This document shows positions 16,681 through 63,942 of a DNA stretch of 64,000 nucleotides, piece after piece. The position numbers and the translations under genes are program-made. The DNA is from Candidatus Aenigmatarchaeota archaeon (lineage in GTDB: Archaea > Aenigmatarchaeota > Aenigmatarchaeia > CG10238-14 > SCSR01). The notes under the pieces are model-generated. The model was not told the DNA's origin. It did no database searches and worked only from the letters and a program-made list of their open reading frames with translations. The number at the start of each line of letters is the position of its first letter. Position 1 is the first letter of the stretch. The stretch is from contig JACRAE010000004.1 in the NCBI GenBank assembly GCA_016213525.1, positions 13,269 to 77,268 of the forward strand, written 5' to 3'.

Positions 16681-16726
16681 CCAATTCCCCAATAACAATT
16701 TTTGGAATCTTGAAGTTATAGGTTAG

Positions 16727-34785: not shown

Positions 34786-34827
34786 GCTACCGCTCACTAG
34801 AATACATTTAACCTGCATATTAGATTA

Positions 34828-36174
34828 ATGATTATGGACGGGAGGCGTTTCCTCATAATCCTCGTCGCGGCGTCCCTCGCGATGAAGATACCCATCGCCC
34901 TCATGACGCATAGTTTTGGTGTAGACGAGAGCCTATACCTGTCGACCGCAAGGCAGTACGCAGAGACGGGAGTGTTCGGTCTACAGGAGGGACCGTACGA
35001 CTTCAGGTTCATAGCTCCCATGTTCGCCTTCGTCGCGTCGTTCTTCTATATGCTAGGCGGGGAGGGAGGCGTGCTGTTGATATCGCCGATTTTCACAACC
35101 CTCTCCCTTGTTGCAATCTATCTGCTCGGCAGACAGGTGGGCGGCGAGAAGGTCGGGAGGCTGGCCGCCTTGATGGGAATGTTCTCCTCCATACTCCTTC
35201 TCATGTCTTCCAGACCCCTCACCGAGGGCGTGGCGCTGTTCTTCTTCTCGGCCTCGATGCTGGCTATGAGCTCCGCCGCAAGGGACGGCTCGCATCGCGG
35301 CTGGCTGGTTGCCCTGCCCGTGCTGATGACCGCGACTTTCCTCTCCAGGTTCCAATACGGCTTCCTGATTGTGGTGTTCTTTGTGGCGTACGTCCTGTTC
35401 TCGGGGACCTACAGAAAATTTGCCGCTCCGGGTCTCCTTCTTGGCTGCCTGGCGGCGGCCGCTGTCGCCTCGCCTTGGATTTTGATGAACATGGCGAACT
35501 ACGGTAGCCCTCTCGGCGGCGCCGAACGCCAGGCCGGAACGGACGCCGGCTTCGATCCGTCGAGCGCTGTTTTCTACGTGCCGTACTTCTTCCTGATAGC
35601 CGGTCTGTATGCCCCGCTGGTTCTCTACGGTCTCTACAGGGCGGTCAAATCCAAGGACATGTTCCTGGTGATGTCCTTTGCCGTGGTCTTTGCCGCCCAG
35701 TTCCTCGTGTTCGGAAAGATAGTTGAAGAAAGATACTTGCTTCCGTTGCTGCCCGCGTCGCTGATCCTGGCCGCCGCGGGCTTCTTCGGCATGGCTAAAG
35801 GAGACAGGAGGTTGATGGGGATTGTCCTGATAGCCATCATGTTGGGAAGCCTGGCCCTCGGATACGGCGCGGTAAGCGTTTACCAGAACAACGCCCGATA
35901 CGACGACTCAAAAGACGCGGCGTTCTTTGTGAAAGAGAACTGCAGCTCCCCGGTAATGAGCAACTCTTTCGTCCACGTGTGGTATTACACGGGATATGAG
36001 AACATCCCCCTGCAGAAGGATATTTATGCGAGTCTGGAGGCTATGGGGGACAGGTCTGCCAACTGCATAATGTTCAGCGAATATGAGGCTCCGTTCACGG
36101 ACCCCTTCCGCGGCACGCCCTATGTGAAGACCGCGTTCGAGTCTTCGGGCGTCACCGTCTACAAGCTGTCATAG
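34828..36174 (+). CDS. GT-C fold membrane glycosyltransferase, PMT_2/ArnT-like
   Basis: 448 aa. First-loop motif FGVDESLYLSTARQY, then ...APMFAFVASFFYMLGG...ISPIFTTLSLVAIYLLGRQVGGEKVGRLAALMGMFSSILL (PMT_2 layout). There are multiple TM segments. Confidence 0.6.
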   Translation: MIMDGRRFLIILVAASLAMKIPIALMTHSFGVDESLYLSTARQYAETGVFGLQEGPYDFRFIAPMFAFVASFFYMLGGEGGVLLISPIFTTLSLVAIYLLGRQVGGEKVGRLAALMGMFSSILLLMSSRPLTEGVALFFFSASMLAMSSAARDGSHRGWLVALPVLMTATFLSRFQYGFLIVVFFVAYVLFSGTYRKFAAPGLLLGCLAAAAVASPWILMNMANYGSPLGGAERQAGTDAGFDPSSAVFYVPYFFLIAGLYAPLVLYGLYRAVKSKDMFLVMSFAVVFAAQFLVFGKIVEERYLLPLLPASLILAAAGFFGMAKGDRRLMGIVLIAIMLGSLALGYGAVSVYQNNARYDDSKDAAFFVKENCSSPVMSNSFVHVWYYTGYENIPLQKDIYASLEAMGDRSANCIMFSEYEAPFTDPFRGTPYVKTAFESSGVTVYKLS

Positions 36175-37559: not shown

Positions 37560-39374
37560 CTAGATTCTGAATATGTAATAGGTGTTGGCCCTCTCCCTGC
37601 TGAATCCGGGCTCCGCTATCTTGTACACGTGGGCCAGCTCCAGCCTCTGATTCATGTCCTCTATCGTGAACTTCCTCAAATCCAGGTCAAGCTGGTCTAT
37701 CATTATGTAGGACGCGTTGTGCTGCCTGCCGAAATTTATAACAGTGTCGGCGTCCTCGAACGGTATGGAGAGTATCTTCCTGTCCGTGGCCAGGTTCAGT
37801 ATGTGAATGTTGGTCCATCTTGCCATGATTACGTCGTCGACGCCGGTGTTCTGGTTAATCCAGCTCTGGGCATAGTCCGCCTTTATGTTGGACCTTATGG
37901 CGTATGTCGGGATTTGAACAAGCAGAAGTATGATTATCGCCACGTAGACAATCTTCCTCATGTGGGGTCTCAGCTTCTCGAGGAAGGCCACGCCGAGTAT
38001 GGCTAAGACGAACGCCTGCGGGAATAGGAAGTTGTAGGTGAAAGTGGTCCTCGTGTTCCATAATAGTAGGGACAGCGCGAACCCTATGATTATGTAGATT
38101 GCCAGGAAGTTCTTCTCCGTTATGGTCCTGCCGAGGGACTTCAGCAGGTAGTAAAGGGCGAATATCATTATCGGCATCGTTATGACCATCGACATTGGGT
38201 TCAGCACGAGGTTCAGGTTGGTCGTCGGGTCCCAGTTCATGAAGAAGTTGTCCTGGACCGCCTGGAACGGCAGAGGGAAGAGGGCGCGATATAGGTTCGT
38301 CGCTTTTGTGAACAGGTAGTCTCCGGGATGTGTCGTCGCCCACTCGACGAACTCCCCAAACGTGGGCTTGTCGAACGAGAACACCTGATCGAAGGCGCTG
38401 ACAAATATCACGGACCTGGAGCTGCTGTACAGCGGGTCGCCGTATATCACGTAGTTTCTCGCGAGCCAAGGCGACGTCACGAGGAGCATGAGGGCGAACA
38501 TGGTGAAAAACTGCCTGGTCAGTATCTGCTTACGGTCCGTCAGGAAGAAGTAGGCCAGGTAACTCAGTATGAGTATCGTGCCGGGGGCGTAGTGTGTTAT
38601 GTAAAGCAGCCCTGTCAGAATCCCAACGTAGTTCCAGTAGTCCCTGCCCTTCATGAAGAAGTAGATCGACGTGAGGGCCATGTATACCGTCGTCAGCCTG
38701 ACCTCCGACTCGAATGAATGTCCCATGATTATCGGATTGAATGCTATCAGGGCCGCGGCCACGAGAGCCACCCTTTCGCCACCTATCTTCTTGGCTATTA
38801 GGTACGTGGGGATGATTACGAGGACTCCCATGAGGACGTTGACCATCTTGGAAATGTAGAACGAAGTCCCGAAGATGTTGTAGAAGAACCCGAGTATGAA
38901 ATTGAAGAATGGGGGCCTGTAGTCCTCGGGGAACGGGAACTTTATCGGGGACCAGAAACTGTCGATTGCGTTGACCTCGAACCAGTCGTCCGTCGTGAAG
39001 GTCCTTCCCAGGTCCATGTGGAACGACGAGTCTCCGGCCAGGGGAGTCGGGAAAAGGAACTGCAGTGAGAACCTCAGGATGAACGCGGCCGCCAGTATAA
39101 CCAAGAGATACCTATGTTTTTTGAAGTTCGGTCTGAAGTCTACCTTCGTCTTCTTGTAGAGCACGAACGCGACTACTGGAATTATGGAAGCCAGAGAGTA
39201 TATCAGCGGTACGCCTAACATGTGCAGGAACAGTCCGAATCCCCCAAAAACAATGAAAGACAATACGAAGCTCATGGCGAGGCGCTCCATACCCCCAAGT
39301 CTCTTATCGAGCGATGCTAGGAGGTACCCCGGAATCAGGCCTATCGCCGCGACCAAAAATATCTCGTAGAACAT
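37560..39374 (-). CDS. GT-C fold membrane glycosyltransferase, PMT_2/ArnT-like (604 aa; paralogue of 44056..45855)
   Basis: DYRPPFFNFILGFFYNIFGTSFYISKMVNVLMGVLVIIPTYLIAKKIGGERVALVAAALIAFNPIIM matches the PMT_2 core. About 13 TM segments plus a C-terminal soluble domain ending NTYYIFRI. Confidence 0.6.
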   Translation of the reverse strand: MFYEIFLVAAIGLIPGYLLASLDKRLGGMERLAMSFVLSFIVFGGFGLFLHMLGVPLIYSLASIIPVVAFVLYKKTKVDFRPNFKKHRYLLVILAAAFILRFSLQFLFPTPLAGDSSFHMDLGRTFTTDDWFEVNAIDSFWSPIKFPFPEDYRPPFFNFILGFFYNIFGTSFYISKMVNVLMGVLVIIPTYLIAKKIGGERVALVAAALIAFNPIIMGHSFESEVRLTTVYMALTSIYFFMKGRDYWNYVGILTGLLYITHYAPGTILILSYLAYFFLTDRKQILTRQFFTMFALMLLVTSPWLARNYVIYGDPLYSSSRSVIFVSAFDQVFSFDKPTFGEFVEWATTHPGDYLFTKATNLYRALFPLPFQAVQDNFFMNWDPTTNLNLVLNPMSMVITMPIMIFALYYLLKSLGRTITEKNFLAIYIIIGFALSLLLWNTRTTFTYNFLFPQAFVLAILGVAFLEKLRPHMRKIVYVAIIILLLVQIPTYAIRSNIKADYAQSWINQNTGVDDVIMARWTNIHILNLATDRKILSIPFEDADTVINFGRQHNASYIMIDQLDLDLRKFTIEDMNQRLELAHVYKIAEPGFSRERANTYYIFRI

Positions 39375-44055: not shown

Positions 44056-45855
44056 CTATGTTTTGAATATGTAGTAGGTATTCTTGTGTTCCTTGAATAT
44101 CCCCTTCTCATACACGTTGTAGGTTCCTACATTCTGGAAGTTCTCACCCAAGAAATCCAAGTCCACTGTGTAGGCGCTGGAATTCAGATTTTTGTTGAGT
44201 AGCGACCCGACGAAAACGTCGGTATCGTCCACAACGATGTAATCGGCCCCGCTTTCATTCACAAAATTCAAAAACTGCTGCTGGCTCCCGTAACGAATCG
44301 CTATTGTGCTCCTCCCGGTCAAAAAATTGGTGACGTACGTGTCTGTCCATCTCAACATTATCTTGTCCTCAATCTCCGTGTTCTGCGTTATCCATGATTG
44401 CGCAAAGTCCCTCCTCACATCGTTTTTCAACGTGTAATTGCCCACCTGCAATATTATGAAGATTACTATCAGAACCGCTATAGCCTTCTTGTATTTGCTT
44501 CCTATTTTCTCGAAGGCCGAGAATGCTGCCACGCTAAGCAACGCTACCTGTGGGAAAAGTATGCTAAGTTCTATCGGAATTATTATGTTGGTAACCGCGA
44601 TTGCGAACGCGAAACCTACTATCACATAGACTAAGATTACATCGAGTTGTCTTTTCGCCCTCATTGCAGCCTTCACCAGATAAATCATGGAGAGCGCTGC
44701 TATCGGAAGCGTTAGGAAAGATATGAAAGATCTGTTAATCATGTTCTCATTTGAGAGGAAGTTCAGATTGAAATTGCCGCCTGTGAACGGAACTGGGAAA
44801 ACCGCCCGCAGGAAAATAAACAATTTGTCGCGGATTACCTGAGAAATTTCTTTCTGGGCGCTTGGTTCGTTTCCTGGTAGGAGAAGAATCTCATACTCGC
44901 TGTTTAGATTCACGAACCTGCTAGAGGAAGATGTGAGCGGCGACCCGAAAAACTCGTAGTTTCTGACAACCCATGGCGAAACTATGATCAGAGACAAAAT
45001 TATAGCCATGGTGTTCTGCTTGGTTATCACGCCCCTGAACCTGGACTTTACTAGAAATATCAGATATGTTATGCCCAGAATTATGGATTCCGGATAGTGT
45101 ATTAGGAAAGTAATGGTCAGAAACAAGAACGATAATGCCAGATTCTTGGACATGAAGAAATACAACGATGTTAGGGCCGCGTATGCGGTTATTATCCTGA
45201 CCTCGGTGTCCACCGACTGTCCTATGAAGAATGGGCTTACCGCTATGAATACCGAGGCGAAAAGCCCCGCCTTCCCGTAGGATCTTCCGATAAGAAATAT
45301 GGGAACTATCATTAGGGTGCCTAGGATGACATTCGTGAACTTCGCTATCTCGTAGCTCTGACCGAATACACTAAAAAATAATCCTGTGACGAAGTTGAAG
45401 AAAGGTGGCCTGTCGTCAACTGGACATGGAAAATCCGAGCATTGCATAGCCCCTATCGTGTTGACGTTGACGGAAAACCAGTTTGGGGTCGTGAAAGTCT
45501 TAGCCAGGTCCATATGAAGGAATGTATCGAACCCAAACGGGAAGTCGAATAGGAACTGCATCGCGAACCTCAGCAAAAATGCCGCCAACAGGACCAACAA
45601 AAGGCTTGTTGGGAACGATATTTTGGTTTCCGGCTTCCTCACCAACAAAATTAGCGGAAGTAAAAATACGGACACTAGGGAATACTCCAACGGGATGCCG
45701 AACAAGTGCAAAAATACCCCTACACCCCCCAAGAACAGAAATCCTAAAAAGAAACTCACAGCGAGCCTTTCAACACAGTCTAGACGCTTGAAGTAAGACG
45801 CGATGAAATATCCGGGCAGTACGGATATGAGAAGCATAGACACTATCTCGAACAT
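44056..45855 (-). CDS. GT-C fold membrane glycosyltransferase, PMT_2/ArnT-like (599 aa; paralogue of 37560..39374)
   Basis: DDRPPFFNFVTGLFFSVFGQSYEIAKFTNVILGTLMIVPIFLIGRSYGKAGLFASVFIAVSPFFI. It shares the N-terminus (..LPGYFIAS..KRL..VERLAVSF..) and the C-terminal NTYYIFKT with 37560..39374. Confidence 0.6.
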   Translation of the reverse strand: MFEIVSMLLISVLPGYFIASYFKRLDCVERLAVSFFLGFLFLGGVGVFLHLFGIPLEYSLVSVFLLPLILLVRKPETKISFPTSLLLVLLAAFLLRFAMQFLFDFPFGFDTFLHMDLAKTFTTPNWFSVNVNTIGAMQCSDFPCPVDDRPPFFNFVTGLFFSVFGQSYEIAKFTNVILGTLMIVPIFLIGRSYGKAGLFASVFIAVSPFFIGQSVDTEVRIITAYAALTSLYFFMSKNLALSFLFLTITFLIHYPESIILGITYLIFLVKSRFRGVITKQNTMAIILSLIIVSPWVVRNYEFFGSPLTSSSSRFVNLNSEYEILLLPGNEPSAQKEISQVIRDKLFIFLRAVFPVPFTGGNFNLNFLSNENMINRSFISFLTLPIAALSMIYLVKAAMRAKRQLDVILVYVIVGFAFAIAVTNIIIPIELSILFPQVALLSVAAFSAFEKIGSKYKKAIAVLIVIFIILQVGNYTLKNDVRRDFAQSWITQNTEIEDKIMLRWTDTYVTNFLTGRSTIAIRYGSQQQFLNFVNESGADYIVVDDTDVFVGSLLNKNLNSSAYTVDLDFLGENFQNVGTYNVYEKGIFKEHKNTYYIFKT

Positions 45856-45917: not shown

Positions 45918-46796
45918 ATGAAAATTTTGGTCACTGGTGGGTCGGGTTTTGTGGGTACTCATTTAATCAACAGGCTTGCGGAAGAACACGAAACCGTCAA
46001 CTTGGATATCAGGAGCCCCCCGCAGCCGAATAAGGCAGACACCTTCATCAAGTGCGACATAACCGACTACAATAGCCTCAAAAAAACATTCGAGAGCGAT
46101 CTGAAGGACATAGACGCCATTTATCACCTGGCTGGATTGTCGAGGGAATCTGAGAGCAACAAGTTTCCGGAAACTTACAACCGCACCAATGTCAATGGCA
46201 CGTTCAACGTAATAGACGCCTCCAGATTCACGAGCTCCAAGAAGTTTATTTTTGCATCCACATTCCTGGTTTACGGGGAGCCCGTATATCTACCGATAGA
46301 CGAAAATCACCCAAAGGACCCCAAGAGCATATACGCCTCTACTAAGCTCTGCGGGGAGACCATATGCAACGCGCATCAGGAAATATACGGCGTGAAGACT
46401 GTAAAGTTCAGGAAGAGCATAATCTACGGAGAGGACGATTTGGAGAAAAGAATAGTTTCGTTGTTCATAGACAAGGCGAAATCTGGAAAAGACCTCACGG
46501 TCTTTGGTAACAAGTTCCTAGACTTTGTCTATATAGAGGACGTCATATCTGCCTACATTTCCGCCCTGAAGAAGGACGTTACTGGAGACTTTAACATCGG
46601 AACTGGTGAAAAGGTCACGCTGCTAGACCTGGCTAACATGGTAAGGGACATAGTGAACCCCGGCGTGAAGGTGGTCGAAGACGGCCTGAGGACTGGAGAG
46701 ATAAAGGGCTATAACCCCGACATATCGAAAGCCAGAAAATTACTGGATTTTAACCCCCAACAAGATTTAATATCCTTCATCAAGAGATGTATATGA
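45918..46796 (+). CDS. NAD(P)-dependent SDR epimerase/reductase (candidate 4-ketoreductase partner of the downstream 3-dehydrase)
   Basis: MKILVTGGSGFVGTHL, ASTFLVYG and YASTKLCGE. 292 aa. Its stop overlaps the start region (ATG x3 at 46787/46793/46796) of the RfbH-like gene. Confidence 0.7.
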   Translation: MKILVTGGSGFVGTHLINRLAEEHETVNLDIRSPPQPNKADTFIKCDITDYNSLKKTFESDLKDIDAIYHLAGLSRESESNKFPETYNRTNVNGTFNVIDASRFTSSKKFIFASTFLVYGEPVYLPIDENHPKDPKSIYASTKLCGETICNAHQEIYGVKTVKFRKSIIYGEDDLEKRIVSLFIDKAKSGKDLTVFGNKFLDFVYIEDVISAYISALKKDVTGDFNIGTGEKVTLLDLANMVRDIVNPGVKVVEDGLRTGEIKGYNPDISKARKLLDFNPQQDLISFIKRCI

Positions 46797-48112
46797 TGGA
46801 TGAGGCTGAGATAAGAAACAAGATATCTTCCCTGGTAAGAGACTTCTTCGAACTGAAAAAATCAAAGAAATTCACCTTCGGAAAGGATCTTATTCAGTAT
46901 TCCGGTGATGTGAAGGACGAAAACGAGATTGACGCCTCCATACAAACGTTACTCGACGGTAGGCTCGCTGCTGGGAAGCAGGTAGAATCATTCGAGAACG
47001 AATTTGCAGATTATCTCGGCGCGAGACACTGCGTTGCCGTCGGCTCTGGAACAGCCGCCGATCTCATTAGCCTGAACGCGCTCCAGAACGAGCACCTAGA
47101 AAATCCGATGAGAAAGGGAGACGAGGTCCTAACGTGCGCCTTGAACTTCGCCACCCCTATGAGCTCGATACTTTTCAATGGTTACAAGCCTGCCCTAGTG
47201 GACACTACTCTTGGGAAGTACACCATGGACGTTGACGATATAGAAGCATCCATAACCGAGAACACCAAGGCTATACTAGCAGTCCACCTGTTCGGCAATG
47301 TTTGCAACCTAGACAAGATAATGAAGATAGCGAAGAAGCATGGTCTCTACGTAATTGAGGATTGCTGTGATTCCGCAGGTTCAATGTACGACGGCAAAAT
47401 GATAGGTACTTTCGGGGACATGGGTACCTTCAGCTTCTATCCTGCCCATCAAATGACGACTATGGAGGGCGGCATGATATCTACGAATAACGAGAACATG
47501 AACTACTTGCTCAGGTCCCTCAGGATGTGGGGAAGAGCTCTTCCTTGTCCCTACTGTGGTGACGATATGGGTAAGTCGTGCAAGCTGAGGCACAATCTCA
47601 ACATAGGCAACATAGGCAGATATGATTTGGCTTACCTTTTCATAAATCAGGGCCATAACTCGAAGCTCGTCGAGGTACAGGGAGCATTCGGAAGGGAACA
47701 GCTCAAGAAGCTCCCGAATTTCAACGAAATACGCCGGGATAACTTCAGGGAGACTGTAAAGGCCCTGAGACCGTACGAGGATCAATTAATTTTGCCAGAG
47801 GCTGAAAAGAATTCCGACCCGGCTTGGTACTCCATACCCCTGACAATCAGGGACGGGGCCGGTTTCAACAGGGAAGACATAACAAACATGCTCAAAGAGG
47901 CGAAGATAGAATTCCGCTACCTGTTCACGGGCAACATACTAGACCAGCCGGCCTTCAGAAACATAGAAAAGAGGATACACGGCGACCTTACGAACGCAAA
48001 CAAGACCACCACAGACTCGTTCTTCATAGGATGCTACCAGGGGATAAACCCCGACATGCGCGAGTATATCATAGAGAAAATGGTCGGATTCTTAGAAAAA
48101 CATAAGAACTGA
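46787..48112 (+). CDS. rfbH: CDP-4-keto-6-deoxy-D-glucose 3-dehydrase (E1/RfbH/DdhC)-like PMP enzyme with Cys cluster
   Basis: RfbH-like N-terminus (IRNKISSLVRDFFELKK...F.FGKD.IQYSGDV.DENE). The active-site motif FSFYPAHQMTTMEGG has His in place of the Lys. Four candidate Fe-S Cys are present (EDCCDSAG ... ALPCPYCGDDMGKSC), spaced C-x59-C-x2-C-x7-C. Confidence 0.75.
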   Translation: MYMMDEAEIRNKISSLVRDFFELKKSKKFTFGKDLIQYSGDVKDENEIDASIQTLLDGRLAAGKQVESFENEFADYLGARHCVAVGSGTAADLISLNALQNEHLENPMRKGDEVLTCALNFATPMSSILFNGYKPALVDTTLGKYTMDVDDIEASITENTKAILAVHLFGNVCNLDKIMKIAKKHGLYVIEDCCDSAGSMYDGKMIGTFGDMGTFSFYPAHQMTTMEGGMISTNNENMNYLLRSLRMWGRALPCPYCGDDMGKSCKLRHNLNIGNIGRYDLAYLFINQGHNSKLVEVQGAFGREQLKKLPNFNEIRRDNFRETVKALRPYEDQLILPEAEKNSDPAWYSIPLTIRDGAGFNREDITNMLKEAKIEFRYLFTGNILDQPAFRNIEKRIHGDLTNANKTTTDSFFIGCYQGINPDMREYIIEKMVGFLEKHKN

Positions 48113-55259: not shown

Positions 55260-56291
55260 TTATTTAAACAATCCTGGGTTTTCCTCTACCCATCCGTGGA
55301 CGCGCTTCACGCCCTCCTCCGGGGACACCTTCGGCTCCCACCCAAAGTCCTCCATGGCTTTGTTGATGTTGGATATGTAGACCTTCTGGTCCGCGGGCCT
55401 CCAGTCGAAATATTTTGTGGATATTTTCCTGTTGTTGATCTTTTCCAGCATTTCTATCAGTTCCAATAATGACAAAGTGTACTTGGCGCCGCCGCCTATG
55501 TTGTAGGCCTTGCCGGCCGTCTTGTTCCTGTTTTCAGACGCCATGTCGGCCGCCCTGCAGAGGTCCTCGATGAACAGGACGTCTCTGACCTGCTTGCCGT
55601 CGCCGAATATGTTTAGCGGCCTCCCGAAGAATGACGATATCACGAAGTGAGCCAGCCATCCCTGCTCTTCCTTTCCGAACTGCCTGGTCCCGTATATGCA
55701 GCTCTGCCTGAAACTGACCGCAGGCATCCCGTAGACGTGGCTAAAGTCCCTTACATAGAGATCGGCGGAGTACTTGGAGACCCCGTACGGGCTGTGCTTG
55801 TCGAAGTCTGTTGTAAAGGTTTCCGGTATGCCGTTCTTGAAGGCGGGGTCCGCGAACTTCCATCTGGTGGCGGCCTCCTCGATGTCTATGGAGTTGATGC
55901 CCTCGCCGTACACTTTGTTAGTGCTGGTGAAGAGCACGAACGGGTTCTCGTTTGAGAGCCTAGCCGCGTCCAATATGTTGAAGGTCCCGAGTATGTTGAT
56001 TTCCATGTCGTTCCGGGGATCTGTGACGGAATCTGTGACCGTCACCTGGCCCGCGGTGTGTATAATCATGTCCCTACCCCTCACGGCGTCCACCATCGCC
56101 TTCGGGTCCTTGACGTCGGCGTTGAGGAATGTGAGCCCTTCCTTGTGTCTGGACTTCAGCCAATCCATGTTTTGCTTGGAGCCGAACCTGTAAAAGTTGT
56201 CCAGGACCGTGACCTCCTCGCCCTTGTTCAAAAAGTAGTCTGCGAAGTTGCATCCTATGAAACCGCAGCCCCCAGTGATTAGTATGGACAT
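55260..56291 (-). CDS. SDR epimerase, CDP-paratose 2-epimerase (RfbE/Tyv)-like
   Basis: MSILITGGCGFIGCNF...VLDNFYRFGSKQNMDWLK, STNKVYG, HSPYGVSKYSAD, QGW, GDGKQVRDVLFIEDL, YNIGGG...LSLLELI and DQKVYISNINK. From memory, these blocks track Salmonella CDP-tyvelose 2-epimerase closely. Trimmed to the ATG at 56291. Confidence 0.6.
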   Translation of the reverse strand: MSILITGGCGFIGCNFADYFLNKGEEVTVLDNFYRFGSKQNMDWLKSRHKEGLTFLNADVKDPKAMVDAVRGRDMIIHTAGQVTVTDSVTDPRNDMEINILGTFNILDAARLSNENPFVLFTSTNKVYGEGINSIDIEEAATRWKFADPAFKNGIPETFTTDFDKHSPYGVSKYSADLYVRDFSHVYGMPAVSFRQSCIYGTRQFGKEEQGWLAHFVISSFFGRPLNIFGDGKQVRDVLFIEDLCRAADMASENRNKTAGKAYNIGGGAKYTLSLLELIEMLEKINNRKISTKYFDWRPADQKVYISNINKAMEDFGWEPKVSPEEGVKRVHGWVEENPGLFK

Positions 56292-56293
56292 TT

Positions 56294-57409
56294 TTAGCCA
56301 CCCAAATATCTTATTCTCTCTTTCTCTGCCTGGTCGAACTTGTCGACCGCCTTCTGGTCGTCGGACCACTCTACCAGCTTCTCCATTCCGCTCTTCAGGG
56401 ACCATTTTGGCTTGAAACCCAGCTTCTTCTCGGCTCTGCCTATGTCAGCAAAGTCGTGCCTGCTGTCCCCCGGCCTGAACTCGTTGGTTATCTTTGGCTC
56501 GATTTCCCTGCCGTTCAGCTCGATGAGCGTCCTCGCTATCTGCTCTATTGTCACCGACTTCCCGGTCCCGAGGTTGAATACGTCGGTCTCCCTTCCCTTC
56601 TCCAATGCGAGCACGTTGCCCATGGCGACGTCCTCTACGAAAATAAAGTCCCTTACCATCTTTCCGTCCTCGTATATCACGGGTGGATTATCGTTCTTCA
56701 CCCTGCTTAGGAAAATGGCGGCCACCCCCGTGTATGGGTTTCCCAGGCTCTGCCTCGGACCGTAGACGTTGAAATATCTGAACGTTATGGACGGTATCTT
56801 AAGGGTGTCCCCGAACATGAGCGTCAGCCTCTCTGTGTCGTATTTCGACAGGGCGTACGCGGCGAGGTTCTGAGGCGGCTTGTCCTCGGTTATTCCCACT
56901 GGAGCCATCTCATTTCCGCAGTGTGGACATAGGACCTCCCACTGTCCCCGCGCGAGCTGGTCTACGGGCCTGTTCACGGGATTTATCACGCCGTGCTGGC
57001 CGCATCTGTAAGAACCCTCGCCATATATGCTCTTCGAGCTCGCGCTCACTATTTTTTTCAGGTTGTTTTTGATCTCTGGGTTCTCTATTATGGCCTCGTA
57101 CATGTTGGCTGTGCCTATGCTGTTCGCCATCATGTACCTCACCGGCTGGTACATGCTCTGTCCCATGCCGACCATGGCGGCTAGGTGGATGACCGCCTCG
57201 ACGCCCGTCAATGCCTTGACCCATGTCTTCTTGTCCAGTATGTCGCCGCTCGTGAGCTCGGCTGTGCCGTTGATGTAAGTCGGTCTGCTGCCGCCGTGGA
57301 CCTGGTTCTCAAAATTATCGAGTATCCTGACGTCGTGCCCCCTCTCCACCAGCAGGTCCACTGTGTGGCTCCCTATGAAACCTGCGCCCCCCGTGACCAG
57401 AACTTTCAT
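56294..57409 (-). CDS. NAD-dependent SDR epimerase/dehydratase with Cys/His-containing insertion
   Basis: [24 protein letters not shown] and YALSKY. A roughly 35-residue insertion between the Ser and YxxxK elements carries YRCGQHG ... LCPHCG, a C-x2-H ... C-x2-C candidate zinc site. Confidence 0.7.
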
Positions 57410-57475: not shown

Positions 57476-58843
57476 TCACTTCCTCCTGCCTATCTCGTCC
57501 CGGACCGACTTTACCGCCATTTCCAGCAGCCTGTCGGCCTCGGCCGGGCTCCTGGCCTCCGCGTTCATCTTAATCGTCGACATTGTGTTGGAGGCCCTGA
57601 TGAGAACCCACCCGTCCTCGCTGTATGCCTTGACTCCGTCAATGTCGAGCGTCCTGAAGCCATTTTTTTTCAAATGGTCCGAGACCTTCTTCACAACGTC
57701 GAATTTTATGTCGTCGTCGCAGTGTACCTCCCTCAGCTCAGAGGTCGGATACACGGGCACCGAGTCCACAATTTTCGCCAACGTGCGTCCCTCGCTCGAC
57801 ACTATCTCGGCCATCTTGAGTCCGGCGTACAGGGCGTCGTCGAAGCTGTGGATCTCCGCGAAGTTTAGGTGGGAACTGTACTCCCCGCCGAATACCGCGC
57901 CCTCGGCTGCCATCCTGCCCTTTATCGCGGGCTGGCCCACCTTGCTCACCACAGGAACGCCGCCCGCGTCCCTTATCGACTCCTCGACGCATGACGAGCA
58001 GCACACGTCGTATACCACCTTGCCGCCCTTGTTGTCGCGCAGGTAGTGACGCGCGAAAATCGGTATCGTTATGTTGCCGGAGGAGACGTACCTCCCAAGG
58101 TTGTCGACGAGCGCTATTCTGTCCACGTCCCCATCGAACGCCATCCCCATATCCGCCCCGCGTGCAAGAACTTCTGACTTCAGGCGGGCCACGTTCTTTT
58201 CCGACGGATCCGACGGCCTCGAAGGGAACGTTCCGTCGGGCTCGCCGTTTATGACAACCACGGCATGGCCTGCTTTTCTCAGGACCGCCTCTGCTATGCC
58301 GCATGCGGCGCCGTTTCCCGGATCTATGACTATGTTGAGCTTGCCGCGCGCCTTTACTCTAGACAACAGAAAACCGACGTATTCTTCTGTCACATCGCTC
58401 TTTGTGGAGGTGCCGGTCCGCGTCCCATACGAGAAGTCCTCGTCCACGAATATTTTTTTTATCCTTTCCAGACCCCCTCCCTGATAAAACTGCGAAGCAT
58501 TGGGCCCCACGAGCTTGAATCCGTTCCAATCGGAGGGGTTGTGGGATGCCGTCACGGATACCCCGGCGTCGAATTTTCCCTGATGAACGGCGAAGTACAT
58601 CATCGGCGTCGTGGACATGCCTATGTCGACCACGTCGCATCCGACAGCCAACATGCCCGATATCATCCTCTCCTTCAGCTTCTCGCCAGTCGGCCTGACG
58701 TCCCTCGAGATAACCACCCTCTTGCCGGGTCCTATGAATGAACCGAATGCCTTTCCGAGCTTCTCGGCTGTGTCGTCGTCGAAGTCCCTCCCATATACCC
58801 CACGGATGTCGTTCGTCCGGAATATGATGTCTGCGTTCTCCAA
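57476..58843 (-). CDS. Phosphohexomutase (phosphomannomutase/phosphoglucomutase/GlmM family)
   Basis: FRTNDIRG, the catalytic TASHNPSDWNGFK, the Mg site FDGDVDR, and the sugar loop GGEYSSH. The first codon at 58843 is TTG, immediately after the upstream TAA. Confidence 0.85.
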   Translation of the reverse strand: MENADIIFRTNDIRGVYGRDFDDDTAEKLGKAFGSFIGPGKRVVISRDVRPTGEKLKERMISGMLAVGCDVVDIGMSTTPMMYFAVHQGKFDAGVSVTASHNPSDWNGFKLVGPNASQFYQGGGLERIKKIFVDEDFSYGTRTGTSTKSDVTEEYVGFLLSRVKARGKLNIVIDPGNGAACGIAEAVLRKAGHAVVVINGEPDGTFPSRPSDPSEKNVARLKSEVLARGADMGMAFDGDVDRIALVDNLGRYVSSGNITIPIFARHYLRDNKGGKVVYDVCCSSCVEESIRDAGGVPVVSKVGQPAIKGRMAAEGAVFGGEYSSHLNFAEIHSFDDALYAGLKMAEIVSSEGRTLAKIVDSVPVYPTSELREVHCDDDIKFDVVKKVSDHLKKNGFRTLDIDGVKAYSEDGWVLIRASNTMSTIKMNAEARSPAEADRLLEMAVKSVRDEIGRRK

Positions 58844-59890
58844 TTAAATCGCCTCGTTTTTCCTCATGCACTCTGCTACCCTCTTCAAGCCCGTCTCGAG
58901 GTCGACCCTCGGACTGTATCCGAACATCCTGTTCGCCTTCGACGTGTCGGGACATCTCCTCCTAGGATCGTCCTTCAGGTTGTAATTCGGCTGTGACTCC
59001 AGACTTATCGTGGACTTGGATTTTGTTATCTTCACTATGGTCTCCGCCAGCTCTAAAATGGTGATTTCTCTATTGTTTCCCACGTTGAACACCTCGCCGT
59101 CTATGCCCGGCGTCAGCAGTAGCCTGAAAAGGCCCTCTATCTGATCCGTTACGTAGCAGAAGCTCCTGGTCTGTTTGCCGTCGCCGTATATCGTGATTGG
59201 CGTGCCGTGTATGGCCTGGTACACGAATTTTATCAGCGCGCGGCCGTAATGGGAGGTTCCCTCCACGTCGAGCCTGGGACCGTAGACGTTGAAGGTCCTC
59301 GTTATCCTTATCGGGGTCTTGTGCGTGTGATAGTATGAGTAGCAGTAGGCTTCAGCCGCCCTCTTGCCCTCATCGTACATGCACCTCGGGCCGAACGAGT
59401 TGACGACCCCGTGGAACGTCTCCTTCGTCGGTATCTGGTCGTCCGGTGGGTTCCCATAGACCTCGCTGGTGCTCATGAACAAGAATCCTTTCACGTTGTC
59501 CGCCCTCGCCTTTTCGAGGAGCTTCCTCGTACCGTTTATGTTTATGTCCAAAGTCTCAATCGGATATTTCATGTAGAGCGGCGGCGTCGCTATGCTCGCC
59601 ATGTGGACTATGTAGTCGAATTTTTCGTCCGATTCGAACTCAAGGAGGCCCGAGTTTATGAAATGGAAGTTGTCCTTTCCCATAAGGTGCTCGACGTTCC
59701 TCTTCGACCCGGAGCTTATGTTGTCCACGCAGGTTATGTCGGCTCCGAAGGAGTCCAAGACGTCGCAGAACCAGCTGCCGAGGAACCCGGCGCCCCCCGT
59801 GACCAGGAATTTCTTGCCCTCTATCTTGTCCGACAGGTCGGAGAGGTTGTGGTTCAGTTCCTTCAGGTCCTCTTCGATTATATGGTTCAT
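58844..59890 (-). CDS. uxs: UDP-glucuronate decarboxylase (UDP-xylose synthase)-like SDR
   Basis: [21 protein letters not shown], the UXS hallmark CMYDEGKRAAE, TRTFNVYGPR and YGDGKQTRSFCYV. Confidence 0.75.
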   Translation of the reverse strand: MNHIIEEDLKELNHNLSDLSDKIEGKKFLVTGGAGFLGSWFCDVLDSFGADITCVDNISSGSKRNVEHLMGKDNFHFINSGLLEFESDEKFDYIVHMASIATPPLYMKYPIETLDININGTRKLLEKARADNVKGFLFMSTSEVYGNPPDDQIPTKETFHGVVNSFGPRCMYDEGKRAAEAYCYSYYHTHKTPIRITRTFNVYGPRLDVEGTSHYGRALIKFVYQAIHGTPITIYGDGKQTRSFCYVTDQIEGLFRLLLTPGIDGEVFNVGNNREITILELAETIVKITKSKSTISLESQPNYNLKDDPRRRCPDTSKANRMFGYSPRVDLETGLKRVAECMRKNEAI

Positions 59891-59900
59891 GGTGGAAGCC

Positions 59901-60818
59901 TCACTCGCGCTTCGTATTGTTCTTGTAAAATTCGGTGAGGTGCTCGACCTTGTTCTTGGTGAACTCGTTTAGCTTGGAGTCGAACAATGAGGTGGTTATG
60001 AAAGCCTCGACGTAGGTCTTGGGATTGCCTATGTCCATATAGATCTCGTCGGGCCTCAGTTTTATCGCTATGACCTTGTATCCCTTCTCTATCAGCCATT
60101 CTATGGCGTCCGTTATCTGCTTCTCCCCCTTCAGGCCGGCCCCGACCTTCTCCAAGGCGTGGAAAATCGTGGGCTTGAATATGTACTTGCCGCATATCGC
60201 AAGGTTCGACACGGTCTCCTGCGGCTTCTCGACGACCCTGTTCAGGTGCAGGACCCCGTTCTCGTCCTCGTCCCCAAGGACGACACCGTACCTCTGCGGG
60301 GTGTCCGTCTCGAAAACTGCGAGCGTGGCGTCCGCGCCGTGCTTCTCATGCGCGTCCTTCAACCTGGTTATGAAGTCGTTCGAGGGCCCCTTGCTCAAAG
60401 AGTACACTATGGAGTCGCCAGAAGTGAAATAGAAGCTGTCCTCGTGTCCGACGTACTCCTTGGCGAGGTGAGCTGCCGCTCCGAACCCGTCGGGCCTCGG
60501 CTGATTTATGTAAGACAGTTTTATTTTACCCAGGAAGTTGTAGAAGCTCTCTGTTGAGTCCAGAGCCTCCTTGTCGGTTATGTGCTCGAGTATACCGTAG
60601 TTCTGCGTGAAGTGGTCCTCTATAGCCCTCTTGTCGCGGCCCGTTATCACGAACATCTTGCTGATTCCGGCGTCGTGTATCTGCTCGACTATCAGGTTCA
60701 GGATGGGCTTGATCTTCCCCTGGTCGACTATTGGGAGCATCTCCTTCGGCTGCTCCTTCGTTGAGGGCATGAGCCTGGTGCCCCGGCCCGCGGCGGCTAT
60801 CACTGCAGACTTTATCAC
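59901..60818 (-). CDS. UTP-glucose-1-phosphate uridylyltransferase-like nucleotidyltransferase
   Basis: AVIAAAGRGTRLMPSTKEQPKEMLPIV and ...VITGRDKRAIEDHF match the GalU-type pattern. The first codon at 60818 is GTG and overlaps the ugd stop as GTGA. Confidence 0.7.
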   Translation of the reverse strand: MIKSAVIAAAGRGTRLMPSTKEQPKEMLPIVDQGKIKPILNLIVEQIHDAGISKMFVITGRDKRAIEDHFTQNYGILEHITDKEALDSTESFYNFLGKIKLSYINQPRPDGFGAAAHLAKEYVGHEDSFYFTSGDSIVYSLSKGPSNDFITRLKDAHEKHGADATLAVFETDTPQRYGVVLGDEDENGVLHLNRVVEKPQETVSNLAICGKYIFKPTIFHALEKVGAGLKGEKQITDAIEWLIEKGYKVIAIKLRPDEIYMDIGNPKTYVEAFITTSLFDSKLNEFTKNKVEHLTEFYKNNTKRE

Positions 60819-62137
60819 GGACGGCCACCTCTAAAATTATCCTTCCATCCTATTCCCCTGTAGACAAGACCCCTCTGCGCAACCTTCTCCGGATCTATGA
60901 TCCTCCTGCCGTCGATTATCGGGGCGTTGATGCTGGAGAGCTCCATGTTCTTGAACTCGTCCCACTCGGTCATGACCATCACTAGGTCGGCGTCCTTGAC
61001 GCACTCTTCCTTAGAGGCGCAGAACGTTACCATGTTGTCGAACATCCCCCTAGCGTTCTCCATCGCCTTCGGGTCGTACGCCCTGACCTTGGCGTGCTTC
61101 CTCAGCAGAGACTGTATAACCACGGTCGACCTAGAGTCCCTCATGTCGTCCGTGTCTGACTTGAACGCCAGACCCAAAATCGATACTTTCTTGTCCGTCA
61201 GGTCGCCTATCGTCTTCTCCGCAAGATCGACCATCCTCTCCGGTTGGGAGTCGTTGATCTTCATGACCTCCTCCAGGAGCGAGGGCTTGACCCCGGCCTT
61301 CTTCGCGGCCGATATCAGAGCCTTGACGTCCTTCGGGAAGCACGAGCCTCCGAAACCCGCCCCCGCGTTGAGGAACTTCGGACCGATTCTCGAGTCTATC
61401 CCCATGGCGCGCGACACCTCCTTGACGTCGGCGTGGTAGTGCTCGCATATGTTGGCGAGCTCGTTCATGAACGATATCCTCGTAGCCAGCATGGCGTTGT
61501 TCCCATATTTTATCATCTCTGCCGTGTTCGTGTCGGTGAATATCCTCGGGAACTTCTGGTCGAAGCCTGAATATAGGTCCGACAGGACTTTCTGCGAGGC
61601 CGAGTCTATACCGCCAATCACTATCTTATCCGGATTCATGAAGTCGTAGACTCCGGACCCCTCTCTCAGGAACTCCGGGTTCATGCACGCTCCGAAGTCC
61701 TCGCCCGCCTTCTTGCCGGAGGCCTTCTCGACTGTCGGTATCACCACGTCTGTGGTGGTGCCGGGCAGGCAGGTGCTCTTCACTACGACGACCTTGTAGC
61801 CCCCAGATTCCCTCATCTGCTCGCCTATCGACTTTGAGCACGTCTCGACCTGCGACAGGTCTATGGAGCCGTCGTCTCGCGAGGGCGTTCCCACGCATAT
61901 GAAAATTACGTCTGCGTCCTTCACGACGGAGTAGTCCGTTGTCGATTTGAGGAGCCCCTTCTTTATACCGGCCCTGAGTACCTCTTCGAGCCCCGGCTCG
62001 TATATCGGGGACACGCCGCGCGCTATCCTGGCGGCCTTCTCCTTGTCCCTTCCGAGCATGGTCACCTCGTGGCCGAACTCGGTGAGGCAGGAGAGGGTTA
62101 TTCCGACGTATCCTGCGCCTATCACAACGATTTTCAT
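60815..62137 (-). CDS. ugd: UDP-glucose 6-dehydrogenase
   Basis: MKIVVIGAGYVG, CVGTP, NPEFLREG, the catalytic GFGGSCFPKD, and LGLAFKSDTDDMRDS. Confidence 0.85.
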   Translation of the reverse strand: MKIVVIGAGYVGITLSCLTEFGHEVTMLGRDKEKAARIARGVSPIYEPGLEEVLRAGIKKGLLKSTTDYSVVKDADVIFICVGTPSRDDGSIDLSQVETCSKSIGEQMRESGGYKVVVVKSTCLPGTTTDVVIPTVEKASGKKAGEDFGACMNPEFLREGSGVYDFMNPDKIVIGGIDSASQKVLSDLYSGFDQKFPRIFTDTNTAEMIKYGNNAMLATRISFMNELANICEHYHADVKEVSRAMGIDSRIGPKFLNAGAGFGGSCFPKDVKALISAAKKAGVKPSLLEEVMKINDSQPERMVDLAEKTIGDLTDKKVSILGLAFKSDTDDMRDSRSTVVIQSLLRKHAKVRAYDPKAMENARGMFDNMVTFCASKEECVKDADLVMVMTEWDEFKNMELSSINAPIIDGRRIIDPEKVAQRGLVYRGIGWKDNFRGGRP

Positions 62138-62174
62138 ATCTTTACCTTACCAAGGATTGGCACGCGTCGTATTA

Positions 62175-62216
62175 AGTATATTACGGAAGTAATAAATAGT
62201 AATACAATAGTATTAC
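62175..62216. promoter_or_regulatory. Candidate operator: four phased AGTA-type repeats including a perfect 7-bp inverted repeat
   Basis: AGTA starts at 62175, 62188, 62198 and 62209, giving spacings of 13, 10 and 11 nt. GTAATAC (62199-62205) and GTATTAC (62210-62216) are perfect reverse complements separated by 4 nt. The repeats overlap the AT-rich TATA-like AATAAATAG about 23-31 nt upstream of the RHH-fusion ATG (62222), in the 84-nt divergent gap shared with ugd. Confidence 0.4.
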
Positions 62217-62221
62217 TCAGT

Positions 62222-63052
62222 ATGAAAGACAGGGTCTCGATAACCCTCGACAGGAACGTCCTGGCAGAGGTCGACAAAAGGGTGGATGGGATCTACATAA
62301 GGTCCAGGTCGGACGCCATAGAGAAGATACTCAGGGAGAACGTGGTGGACGCGAAGACCGCCGTCATATTGGCAGGTGGCTCGCCTGAGAAATTGATTTT
62401 AAAGGGCTCAGACGTCTACAGACCGCTCGTGAGCATAGGAAAGAAGAGCCTCATAGAGGACATAGTCTACAAGTGCAGGGAGGCCGGATTCTCGAACATA
62501 GTAGTCGTGGGCTTCCCGGCCGTCGTGTCCAAGCTCTACGAGACGCTTGGAAACGGGAACAAGTACGGCGTCTCCATAGTGTACATAGAGGAGGACAAGG
62601 CACTGGGCAGCGCCAAGAGCCTAGAGAGGGCTAGGAAGTACCTGAAAACAGACTTCCTATTCGTGCCCTGCGACCACTGGTTCGATTTCGACCTCAAGAA
62701 ACTCGGTGACTTCCATAGGATGAACGGGGGCGTGGCGACCCTGGCCGTGCACTCCAAGACGAGCTTCGACTGGAACACTAGCATAGTCGAGATGGACGGA
62801 TACAAGATAGTCAGCTACGAGGAGTTCCCGAAGAAGCCGAAGACGCACCTCGTGTCCATGCTCATTGGTTTTATGAAGCTGGAGGCCCTGGACAAGATAC
62901 CGCCGGGGGAGATTAGCTGGAGCCTGCAGGAGAACGTTTTTCCGAAGCTCGCAAAGGAGGGCGTGCTCATGGGGTATCCGATAGCCGGCGAGTGGGTCAA
63001 CGTCCACAGCAGGAAGGACGCCGACAAGGTGGTCGAGCTCAGCAAAAGGTAG
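62222..63052 (+). CDS. Ribbon-helix-helix (CopG/NikR-type) domain fused to a divergent sugar-phosphate nucleotidyltransferase domain
   Basis: The N-terminus KDRVSITLDRNVLAEVDKRVDGIYIRSRSDAIEKILRE matches the RHH beta-strand plus 'G(Y)xxRSEAIRxLIR' helix pattern. An NTP_transferase-like fold follows (AVILAGGSPEKL...RPLVSIGKKSLIEDIV...VPCDHWFDFD) with a degenerate GxGTRL loop. Trimmed to the ATG at 62222; the track's 5' extension overlaps ugd. Confidence 0.65.
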   Translation: MKDRVSITLDRNVLAEVDKRVDGIYIRSRSDAIEKILRENVVDAKTAVILAGGSPEKLILKGSDVYRPLVSIGKKSLIEDIVYKCREAGFSNIVVVGFPAVVSKLYETLGNGNKYGVSIVYIEEDKALGSAKSLERARKYLKTDFLFVPCDHWFDFDLKKLGDFHRMNGGVATLAVHSKTSFDWNTSIVEMDGYKIVSYEEFPKKPKTHLVSMLIGFMKLEALDKIPPGEISWSLQENVFPKLAKEGVLMGYPIAGEWVNVHSRKDADKVVELSKR

Positions 63053-63078: not shown

Positions 63079-63942
63079 ATGGAATTGAAGCCTAGCAAAC
63101 TGATGTTCATACCGGTTCTGCTCTTCGCGGCGTCCGTCGGGGTGCTCCTCATGACTTATGTGGACACCGGGGAATTTGTCCTCAAGGACGTTGACCTGAA
63201 GGGCGGAACTCTTGTAACGATAAGCACAGAAGATCCGATTGATATCAAACTTTTAGAAAAAGAGGTTGACAAGGAATTTGGCTCTGGGATAGTGAGCGGT
63301 CTCAAGACCCCGTCCGGCTACGGCGCCACCATCCAAGTTGAGCACACAATAAGCCTCGCGCAAGTCATGAACCTCGTGAGAAGTTTGAATATAGAACCTA
63401 TTGACTACTCTGAACAGACGATAGGCCCCGTCCTTGGAAACCTCTTCTTCGAGCAGGTGAGGAACAGCCTGATAATAGCGTTCGTGATGATGAGCGTCGT
63501 TATTTTCATTATATACAGGAATCCCGTGTCTAGCCTCGGGATAGTCCTCGCCAGCCTCGGGAACATACTGGCGACCCTCGCGTTCGCGAACGTCTTCGGG
63601 ATAGAACTGAGCTTTGCGAGCTTCGCCGGCATGTTGATGTTAATCGCTTTCACCGTCGACACTAACATAGTTCTGACCAGCAAGGTGGTCGCGTACGGAA
63701 GCGACACTTTCATGGTCAGGTACAAGAAGGCGTTCGTGACGGGCGCCACCCTGACAGCAACAATAACCGCCACCATGGTCATAGTGTTGTTCCTCTCGTC
63801 CTCGAAGCTCCTGCTAAACATAGCGGAGATCCTGGTCATAGGCTTCATCACGGACTTGGTCTACACTTGGATACTGAACGCTGGTATGTTGGAAATGTAC
63901 TTCGACAGGAAAAACAGGCGGCATGGGGGATATGGTAAATGA
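63079..63942 (+). CDS. secF: Protein-export membrane protein SecF
   Basis: An N-terminal TM segment, a periplasmic-type P1 domain (GVDLKGGT-like: DVDLKGGTLVTIS), then a 5-TM block (SLIIAFVMMSVVIFIIYRN..., LATLAFANVFGIELSFASFAGMLMLIAFTVDTNIVL). Confidence 0.75.
   Translation: MELKPSKLMFIPVLLFAASVGVLLMTYVDTGEFVLKDVDLKGGTLVTISTEDPIDIKLLEKEVDKEFGSGIVSGLKTPSGYGATIQVEHTISLAQVMNLVRSLNIEPIDYSEQTIGPVLGNLFFEQVRNSLIIAFVMMSVVIFIIYRNPVSSLGIVLASLGNILATLAFANVFGIELSFASFAGMLMLIAFTVDTNIVLTSKVVAYGSDTFMVRYKKAFVTGATLTATITATMVIVLFLSSSKLLLNIAEILVIGFITDLVYTWILNAGMLEMYFDRKNRRHGGYGK

Follow-up and report, generated by a model that had tools for sequence, protein, structure and literature searches.

A ribbon-helix-helix protein fused to a degenerate sugar nucleotidyltransferase-like domain is a candidate regulator of an adjacent UDP-sugar operon in DPANN archaea

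We analysed a stretch of 64,000 nucleotides (hereafter the window) from a Candidatus Aenigmatarchaeota archaeon (GenBank assembly GCA_016213525.1, contig JACRAE010000004.1, positions 13,269 to 77,268) and focused on a gene at 62222..63052 (+) that encodes a predicted N-terminal ribbon-helix-helix (RHH) domain fused to a sugar-1-phosphate nucleotidyltransferase (NTase)-like domain. We consider it probable that this protein is a one-component RHH regulator that responds to a ligand and controls both its own gene and the adjacent UDP-sugar operon, with a pseudoenzyme as its sensor. The observations that bear on this reading are the domain architecture of the protein, the loss of the catalytic signature, the conservation of the putative operator, the co-variation of RHH type with operator sequence, and synteny.

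The fusion gene encodes 276 amino acids followed by a stop codon at 63050-63052. An earlier sequence-only reading of this DNA had started the open reading frame (ORF) at the ATG at 62222, and this start coincides with the point at which the N termini of more than 100 homologs align (MK-x-R-V/I-S-L/I-T/S-L-D...). A longer reading from a GTG at 62069 is possible but runs into the divergent gene, and homolog N termini do not align there. The protein matches the Pfam families RHH_1 (E=5.5e-4, residues 4-39) and NTP_transferase (PF00483, E=6.9e-18, residues 47-223). An AlphaFold2 model of the monomer, built on 103 sequences (mean predicted local distance difference test score 92.1, predicted TM-score 0.83), places two helices, at residues 11-20 and 29-42, ahead of an alpha/beta domain.

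The predicted RHH DNA-binding domain is NikR-like and spans residues 1-45 (62222..62356, +). Its beta-strand comprises K2-D-R4-V-S6-I-T8-L, and the segment RVSITLD resembles RVTITLD of NikR. The modelled monomer has no strand assigned to residues 1-10, as expected without a dimer partner. The RHH_1 match of the window protein reaches 20.2 bits against a cutoff of 20.5 bits, and RHH_1 is found at E<=0.01 in 71 of the 103 family members (best E=5.9e-8). A profile of the N-terminal 45 residues of the family finds the RHH domain of Pyrococcus horikoshii NikR (2bj1, E=0.0025) and 2ca9 (E=0.012), with weaker matches to CopG. NCBIfam NikR models give weak matches confined to residues 3-45 of the window protein, and an ungapped alignment to Escherichia coli NikR has 15 of 35 identical residues (pairwise E=3.6, not significant alone). 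The N-terminal alignment shows no variation at K2, R4, S6, S28, R29 and E34. The CopG/NikR-type RHH proposed from the sequence alone is thus upheld by RHH profiles, and membership of the RHH superfamily appears borderline for the window protein by itself and supported at the level of the family.

The NTase-like domain comprises residues 46-276 (62357..63049, +), and we propose that it is a non-catalytic ligand sensor and oligomerisation module. Its sequence matches in the PDB include GDP-mannose pyrophosphorylase 7whr (1.3e-16) and RmlA. Foldseek searches return RmlA, tlr0611 (a cyanobacterial GalU-like protein) and GMPPB with a probability of 1.00 and query-normalised TM-scores of 0.68-0.76. 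Sequence and model together assign the C-terminal domain to the sugar-1-phosphate nucleotidyltransferase fold. The pyrophosphorylase signature loop is degenerate (residues 50-69; 62369..62428, +) and reads LAGGSPEKLILKGSDVYRPL instead of LxGGxGTRLxPLTxxxPKPL. The loop begins LAGGSPEKL, with GGsPeK where enzymes have GGxGTR; the sequence-only reading had recognised both fold and loop, and the degeneracy extends across the whole family. That reading had also described ILKGSDVYR as inserted, and this part does not hold, because the alignments to 7whr, 3hl3 and Pseudomonas aeruginosa RmlA are ungapped through the loop. Residues 52-70 align without gaps to the GGxGTRLxPLTxxxPKPL segment of these GDP-mannose and dTDP-glucose pyrophosphorylases, and ILKGSDVYR is best read as the divergent counterpart of RLxPLTxxxPK.

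We mapped catalytic positions through a profile alignment to P. aeruginosa RmlA, the sequence and numbering of which were verified as 1fxo_A. RmlA residues R15, K25, D110, K162 and D225 reportedly have catalytic roles. The signature glycine G13 corresponds to P55 (P in 103/103 family members), R15 to K57 (71 K, 12 R and 20 other of 103) and K25 to R67 (R in 102/103). The metal-binding D110 corresponds to D151 (D in 100/103). The sugar-phosphate lysine of the E-K-P motif, K162, corresponds to F202, in a column that holds F in 34, N in 24, K in 15, S in 7, H in 6 and R in 5 of the 103 members, and other residues in the remainder. The W-x-D-x-G motif, which contains D225 at the second metal position, becomes W258-x-N260-x-H262 in a mapping read from the 7whr alignment (W258 and N260 in 103/103, H262 in 102/103). 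Asparagine is a metal ligand at the second metal position in GlmU.

Among 110 close relatives, none retains GxG[TS]R, and 107 have both GGxP and WxNxH. The window protein, as judged from its sequence, thus lacks the signature loop and the E-K-P lysine that define sugar NTases. The remainder of the pocket is far from random: R67, K132, D151, E201, K207, Q236, W258, N260 and H262 show little or no variation over 103 sequences with an average column identity of 67%. These columns point to a pocket that is conserved but re-tooled. Of the catalytic residues that the sequence-only reading had proposed to inspect, the equivalents of R15, K25 and K162 are altered, the aspartate equivalent to D110 is kept as D151, and N260 occupies the second metal position.

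The window protein is a member of a large unnamed family, and every named relative is a DPANN archaeon. When each GTDB species was represented by a single genome, a scan identified 18 loci, the named ones in Aenigmatarchaeota, Parvarchaeota, Nanoarchaeota and Micrarchaeota. An exhaustive profile search identified 142 clusters (50% identity) with E<1e-30. Among the matches listed, most relatives align from profile position 1-3, and the similarity of the distant relatives therefore includes the RHH. Database names for the family go no further than 'NDP-sugar pyrophosphorylase family protein' and 'mannose-1-phosphate guanylyltransferase'.

In most distant RHH-fused relatives (P numbers below denote individual family members), the signature loop is shortened, deleted or expanded, as in P0197 ('LAGDE--KVLL') and P0239 (a long insert). 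A fully canonical GGxGTRLxPxTxxxPK occurs in approximately 5 of 123 distant RHH-fused representatives (P0153, P0158, P0171, P0185 and P0210) and also in P0216, in which E-K-P and W-x-D-x-G were read directly as well. P0216, P0153, P0158, P0171, P0185 and P0210 are candidate bifunctional enzyme-repressors and possibly reflect the ancestral state of the family. The family looks like a series that leads from a fusion of RHH and competent enzyme to a pseudoenzyme, with the window protein at the pseudoenzyme end.

A separate observation concerns members of 413-418 amino acids (P0109, at 6001-7257 of locus L022; P0084; P0105; P0106), which carry an additional N-terminal module. In these proteins a second, different RHH-like segment (RTTIQVSEE...) is followed by a region of ~100 amino acids with a PD-(D/E)xK-nuclease-like motif (PDFLLED...VELEV), and then by the usual RHH and NTase-like domain. 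The repeats upstream of their genes are of the ACATA/TATGT type.

The pocket residues bear on a first alternative, in which the protein would combine enzyme and repressor as BirA, PutA and NadR do: an active NTase with a non-canonical loop would make a particular NDP-sugar, and occupancy of its active site by substrate or product would control RHH repression of the same pathway. Such an activity could draw on the basic residues at both phosphate-binding positions (K57 and R67), on the retained D151 and N260, on the invariant E201 and on pocket conservation far above background, and the canonical distant members indicate that fusions with an apparently competent enzyme exist and may be ancestral. 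The same alignments, however, place an invariant proline (P55) at the signature glycine, substitute N, S, D, G, A or P for K57 in 20 of 103 members and leave the K162-equivalent column variable (F, N, K, S, H and others), with the signature kept in none of the 110 close relatives. Deletion or expansion of the loop in most distant relatives is incompatible with catalysis. Moreover, the adjacent operon already encodes a canonical GalU-type enzyme, which supports the pseudoenzyme reading. We therefore regard a bifunctional enzyme-repressor as unlikely.

The decay or disappearance of the signature loop in distant members would also be expected of a regulator without small-molecule input, in which the NTase-like domain is an oligomerisation scaffold only and control is exerted by the regulator's own level or by protein partners. 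RHH proteins need higher-order assembly on repeat arrays, as MetJ, CopG, omega and NikR illustrate, and a scaffold would provide it. What such a scaffold leaves hard to explain in structural terms is the (near-)invariance of the pocket residues from R67 to H262 over 103 sequences, and this reading is, in our assessment, quite improbable.

The favoured reading, a ligand-responsive RHH regulator, also rests on the DNA upstream of the gene. The 84 nt between ugd (-), the start codon of which lies at 62135-62137 on the minus strand, and the fusion gene (+) form a predicted divergent promoter/operator region (62138..62221). The sequence-only reading had described this gap, AGTA repeats starting at 62175, 62188, 62198 and 62209, and a perfect inverted repeat; all are present, the last as GTAATAC-aata-GTATTAC at 62199-62216. 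The repeat unit is better read as a 7-bp quasi-palindrome, GTA-W-TAC, the reverse complement of which falls in the same class. Five copies (S0 to S4) follow one another at spacings of 9, 11, 10 and 11 bp, and all five heptads thus lie on roughly one face of the helix.

The distal heptad S0 (GTATTAa, 62169..62175) overlaps the only AT-rich TATA-like stretch available to ugd, a presumptive promoter assignment. S1 (aTATTAC, 62178..62184) appears in aligned upstream regions as TATTAC, TTAC or TAAC, followed by GAAA. S2 (GTAATAa, 62189..62195) has T, A, T and A positions that are invariant in 16 aligned loci; together with the AATA that follows, it probably forms the TATA-like element of the regulator gene, preceded by GGAA/GAAA resembling a B-recognition element (BRE). 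S3 (GTAATAC, 62199..62205) occupies -23..-17 from the ATG, and its core positions are likewise invariant in the 16 loci; its offset of -23 is identical in loci L001, L004, L006 and L007 (L numbers denote individual loci). S4 (GTATTAC, 62210..62216) occupies -12..-6 and is the partner of S3 in the perfect inverted repeat.

This array is unique in the window. GTAATAC/GTATTAC occurs in 3 copies in the 64 kb, 2 of them in the 84-nt gap, and a search for the 18-bp palindrome with up to 3 mismatches gave no further match in the window at <=2 mismatches. The gap contains 7 matches to the hexamers GTAATA, TATTAC, GTATTA and TAATAC; nowhere else in the 64 kb do 3 or more such matches cluster, and a count of 7 was never reached when the AT-rich segment itself was shuffled 20,000 times. 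The repeats are thus more frequent here than AT-rich composition would give, the comparison for which the sequence-only reading had called. A scan for sigma-70 promoters found nothing, with a model that is not applicable to archaea.

Across genomes, the array is preserved and changes with the type of the N-terminal domain. All 18 of the 18 GTDB loci that share this RHH type have a heptad-type hexamer cluster no more than ~75 bp before the start codon, although protein identity among these loci is 39-69% and their GC content ranges from 30% to 55%. Perfect heptads are 144-fold denser at -80..-1 than in the remainder of the loci. We counted 21 heptads in 19 upstream windows versus 6 in 206 AT-rich control windows, which are ~38-fold poorer per window. 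The upstream consensus is TTTAAATA-TATTAC-GAAA-GTATTA-AATA-GTAATA-n5-GTATTAC-(4-12 nt)-ATG, with invariant T/A core positions. Both the fusion and its upstream heptad array thus recur in other DPANN archaea; the sequence-only reading had suggested a search of other genomes for the fusion and for the motif.

Some orthologs have an NTase part that is ~55% identical but begin with another type of RHH, which gives weak matches to RHH_10/DUF7557. No GTAWTAC is found upstream of the orthologs with an RHH_10/DUF7557-like N terminus; the same upstream position holds ACATA-n4-TATGT repeats, with ugd-galU neighbours unchanged. That the repeat type switches with the RHH type is the strongest argument available here that the N-terminal domain reads the repeats. 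Second heptad clusters also occur upstream of unlinked uxs-ugd operons (L009 and L010), and L018 has a perfect GTAATAC-n4-GTATTAC at an internal promoter before an epimerase gene. These observations support the view that the repeats behave like the putative operator of the fusion protein. In L001 (about 4065-4071) and L007 (about 5984-5990), the proximal heptad is GTATGA, which we take to be the half-site of the E. coli NikR operator.

Gene neighbourhoods are similarly constrained. We compared 22 loci, the 18 GTDB loci (by tblastn of the window neighbours) and 4 fetched via homologs. Sugar or glycan genes surround the regulator in 22/22 loci, and ugd, galU-like, uxs-like or epimerase genes are adjacent in 21/22. 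Among the 18 GTDB loci, the regulator is directly divergent from ugd in 8 and lies beside galU-like, uxs-like or epimerase genes in 9; the exception, L006, places it beside an oxidoreductase/methyltransferase fusion and GT2 glycosyltransferases. The 4 homolog-derived loci have the same divergent ugd-NTase-SDR operon. The gap between ugd and the regulator measures 60-89 nt in 11 related loci.

These results leave little room for an ordinary enzyme with an RHH-like dimerisation tail, in which the repeats would be generic archaeal promoter elements, an RNA hairpin or the sites of an unrelated factor. Such a reading could appeal to the RHH_1 score marginally under the cutoff, to AT-rich repeats that overlap TATA-like sequence, and to S3 and S4, which could pair as a 7-bp hairpin in a leadered mRNA. 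A hairpin in the 5' leader was rejected: across the 16 aligned loci there is no covariation (the score is equalled in 272/500 shuffles), 7/16 lack the terminal pair, and the three repeats of L016 and L017 are direct and thus unable to pair, such that pairing of S3 with S4 is a by-product of sequence conservation only. Generic promoter elements would not be confined to 3 heptads in 64 kb or be ~38-fold rarer in AT-rich control windows, nor would an unrelated factor's sites change to ACATA/TATGT exactly with the RHH type, and the enzyme has lost its catalytic signature. We consider this reading highly improbable. A toxin-antitoxin pairing of RHH antitoxin and minimal nucleotidyltransferase was rejected, since the C-terminal domain has the PF00483 sugar-pyrophosphorylase fold and not that of a Pol-beta-type minimal NTase.

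The mechanism that we propose for the regulator adds to these observations a predicted DNA binding, a predicted ligand and its likely identity, a sign of regulation and a promoter geometry. The NikR-like RHH domains would dimerise, and each dimer would read one GTA-W-TAC heptad. The NTase-like domain would provide a higher-order assembly that places several RHH dimers on phased sites. The 4-5 heptads, about one helical turn apart, would span the back-to-back core promoters of the 84-nt gap. S2-S4 would cover the regulator's own TATA-like element and the interval between TATA and start codon: GAAA-GTAWTA-AAWA (S2 with its flanks) may represent BRE and TATA box for a leaderless or near-leaderless regulator mRNA, and S3 and S4, between the TATA-like element and the start codon, would occupy the classic position of an archaeal repressor site. 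On the other side, S0, S1 and the conserved TTTAAATA just upstream of S1 coincide with the only TATA-like sequence that appears available to ugd in the window; the leader of ugd is short and includes AAGGT, which resembles a Shine-Dalgarno element.

If the heptads on one face of the DNA are filled cooperatively, the protein would therefore regulate its own gene and control the divergent ugd/galU/uxs/pgm operon. With heptads over both promoters, occupancy should shut both down, and repression would be the likelier direction than activation. The re-tooled pocket would most probably bind a nucleotide-sugar or a related metabolite or precursor, and binding would alter DNA affinity or oligomer state. 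We favour end-product co-repression, as in NikR and MetJ, which would be economical for a biosynthetic operon.

Several points weigh against this proposal. The window protein alone scores 0.3 bits under the Pfam RHH_1 cutoff. The promoter elements and transcription start sites are predictions from the DNA, and the AlphaFold2 monomer leaves the fit of dimer or tetramer geometry to the heptad spacing of 10-11 bp to conjecture. Basic K57 and R67 could partly stand in for R15 and K25, and with D151 retained and an asparagine at the second metal position, as in GlmU, the protein may have residual catalysis. At the unlinked targets, L009 and L018 have their heptads on the far side of the TATA-like box, upstream of it, an arrangement also compatible with activation. 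Finally, an invariant glutamate, E124 (window 62591-62593), occupies the position of RmlA Q83, the pyrimidine-selecting residue that governs base selectivity. According to the titles of PDB entries 3pkp and 3pkq, RmlA with Q83D or Q83S takes purine nucleotides. E124 thus hints at a guanine nucleotide as ligand, a poor fit to a UDP-sugar operon.

The likely regulated target is the divergent operon at 57476..62137 (-), which we delimited by NCBIfam matches, ORFs and synteny. It encodes an AglM-like UDP-glucose 6-dehydrogenase (ugd, 60815-62137, -), a GalU-like UTP-glucose-1-P uridylyltransferase (59901-60818, -) in which the signature GRGTRL is canonical (AAAGRGTRL...PKEMLP), a UXS/ArnA-like SDR (58844-59890, -) and a phosphogluco/phosphomannomutase (57476-58843, -). 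Epimerase genes and a WecB-like epimerase gene continue downstream to about 54106 (-), followed by two further ORFs to about 52015 (-). Among these, the ORFs listed at 55260-56405 (-) and 56294-57409 (-) overlap, in that the second epimerase extends 112 nt into the upstream gene. Its real start is probably an internal Met before 'SILITGGCGFIG', and the arginine-rich N-terminal extension is likely untranslated.

On the other side of the regulator, a SecF gene (63079-63942, +) begins 27 nt beyond the stop codon of the regulator gene, and the two may share a transcript. A functional link to SecF was considered and rejected: the gene follows the regulator in only ~8 of the 22 loci, all from closer relatives, whereas sugar genes accompany it nearly everywhere, a pattern of local synteny for SecF.

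The window also contains a larger glycosylation locus, which the sequence-only reading had placed, over 50 kb, under the control of this protein. The locus encodes STT3/AglB, two Polysacc_synt flippase-like proteins, four PMT_2-family GT-C proteins, a second UDP-glucose/GDP-mannose-type dehydrogenase and a DegT-type aminotransferase, with genes on the minus strand at 11842-14184, 15160-16698, 29858-31246, 33259-34818, 37560-39374 and 44056-45855, and on the plus strand at 26500-28185, 34828-36174 and 46787-48112. A search of the whole window found a heptad cluster at none of these promoters. Heptad, 18-bp palindrome (<=3 mismatches) and hexamer-cluster searches all single out the same intergenic region and thus give no support to a regulon over the 50-kb locus. 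The motif evidence appears to cover the regulator gene and the adjacent ugd/galU/uxs/pgm operon only. Of the proposed role, regulation of the local nucleotide-sugar operon is thus sustained by the operator and by synteny in 22 loci, and the extension to the entire locus is not supported by the motif.

DPANN archaea have tiny genomes with very few recognisable regulators, and control of their gene expression is almost unexplored. Here, a predicted regulator, its operator and its regulon can be read from sequence, and they recur in Aenigmatarchaeota, Parvarchaeota, Nanoarchaeota and Micrarchaeota. The system is most likely a local switch for the supply of cell-surface sugar precursors. There is perhaps an even chance that the family constitutes an undescribed, widespread DPANN class of nucleotide-sugar-sensing transcription factors, in which the RHH reads a phased GTAWTAC array, a pyrophosphorylase-derived pseudoenzyme reads the NDP-sugar pool and the output sets UDP-glucuronate/UDP-xylose-type supply for the cell envelope; the family would then record a stepwise conversion of enzyme into sensor.

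We found no description of an RHH-NTase fusion or of a DPANN RHH glycosylation regulator in the literature searched, and we know of no described transcription factor that senses a nucleotide-sugar via a pyrophosphorylase-derived pseudoenzyme domain, which the window protein would be if our reading is correct. The general principle, in which a DNA-binding domain is joined to a sensor of enzymatic origin, is familiar; the sensor fold, the operator and the predicted set of regulator, operator and regulon in DPANN archaea are new as far as we have checked. The labels 'NDP-sugar pyrophosphorylase' and 'mannose-1-phosphate guanylyltransferase' would then need correcting for the family, which would offer a natural series for the study of pseudoenzyme evolution from enzyme-repressor fusion to sensor. 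The proposal is amenable to direct testing, with a protein of 276 amino acids, a 50-bp operator and commercially available candidate ligands.

Among characterised systems, NikR is the closest in architecture. In both proteins an N-terminal RHH is followed directly by a ligand-binding, oligomerising domain (predicted here), and NikR provides the closest known RHH sequence match to the family (2bj1). The E. coli NikR half-site, GTATGA, resembles the heptad and is matched exactly by the proximal site in L001 and L007. Unlike the ACT-like nickel-binding tetramerisation domain of NikR, the C-terminal domain of the window protein is an NTP_transferase fold of ~230 amino acids. The operators differ as well, with 4-5 heptads at 10-11 bp here and two half-sites 16 bp apart for NikR, as do the targets, which are nucleotide-sugar genes here and nickel uptake genes for NikR.

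A second comparison is with GMPPA, GalF and eIF2B gamma-epsilon, non-catalytic paralogs of sugar-nucleotide pyrophosphorylases that share the fold, an altered catalytic signature and its reuse for regulation. GMPPA, which binds GDP-mannose and feeds back on GMPPB (PMC11228364), is a precedent for an NDP-sugar sensor made from a non-catalytic NTase. Chains of eIF2B-gamma and GMPPB are among the sequence or fold matches of the window protein, and NCBIfam labels GalF a 'GalU regulator'. They exert their effect by contacting other proteins, either a catalytic partner or translation factors, and lack a DNA-binding domain, whereas the predicted output of the window protein is transcriptional.

PutA, BirA and NadR resemble the window protein in that an enzyme-derived domain is fused to a DNA-binding domain. 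PutA combines an N-terminal RHH with enzyme domains and, from several operator sites, represses the divergent put promoter region to which its own gene belongs; in BirA and NadR, repression is tied to an active site for nucleotidyl transfer. These proteins are catalytically active, whereas neither the window protein nor any of its 110 close relatives keeps the signature, and only a few distant RHH-NTase fusions with a canonical signature resemble the PutA/BirA type.

Finally, MetJ, omega (pSM19035) and CopG are, like the predicted regulator, RHH repressors on arrays of short direct or inverted repeats. They place one RHH dimer on each 7-8 bp repeat and bind 2-5 or more direct or inverted repeats cooperatively, and the co-repressor of MetJ is a metabolite, S-adenosylmethionine. 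Their repeats abut with a period of 7-8 bp, whereas the heptads of the window recur every 10-11 bp on one face of the DNA, and the predicted sensor is a fused domain of 230 amino acids rather than the RHH core itself.

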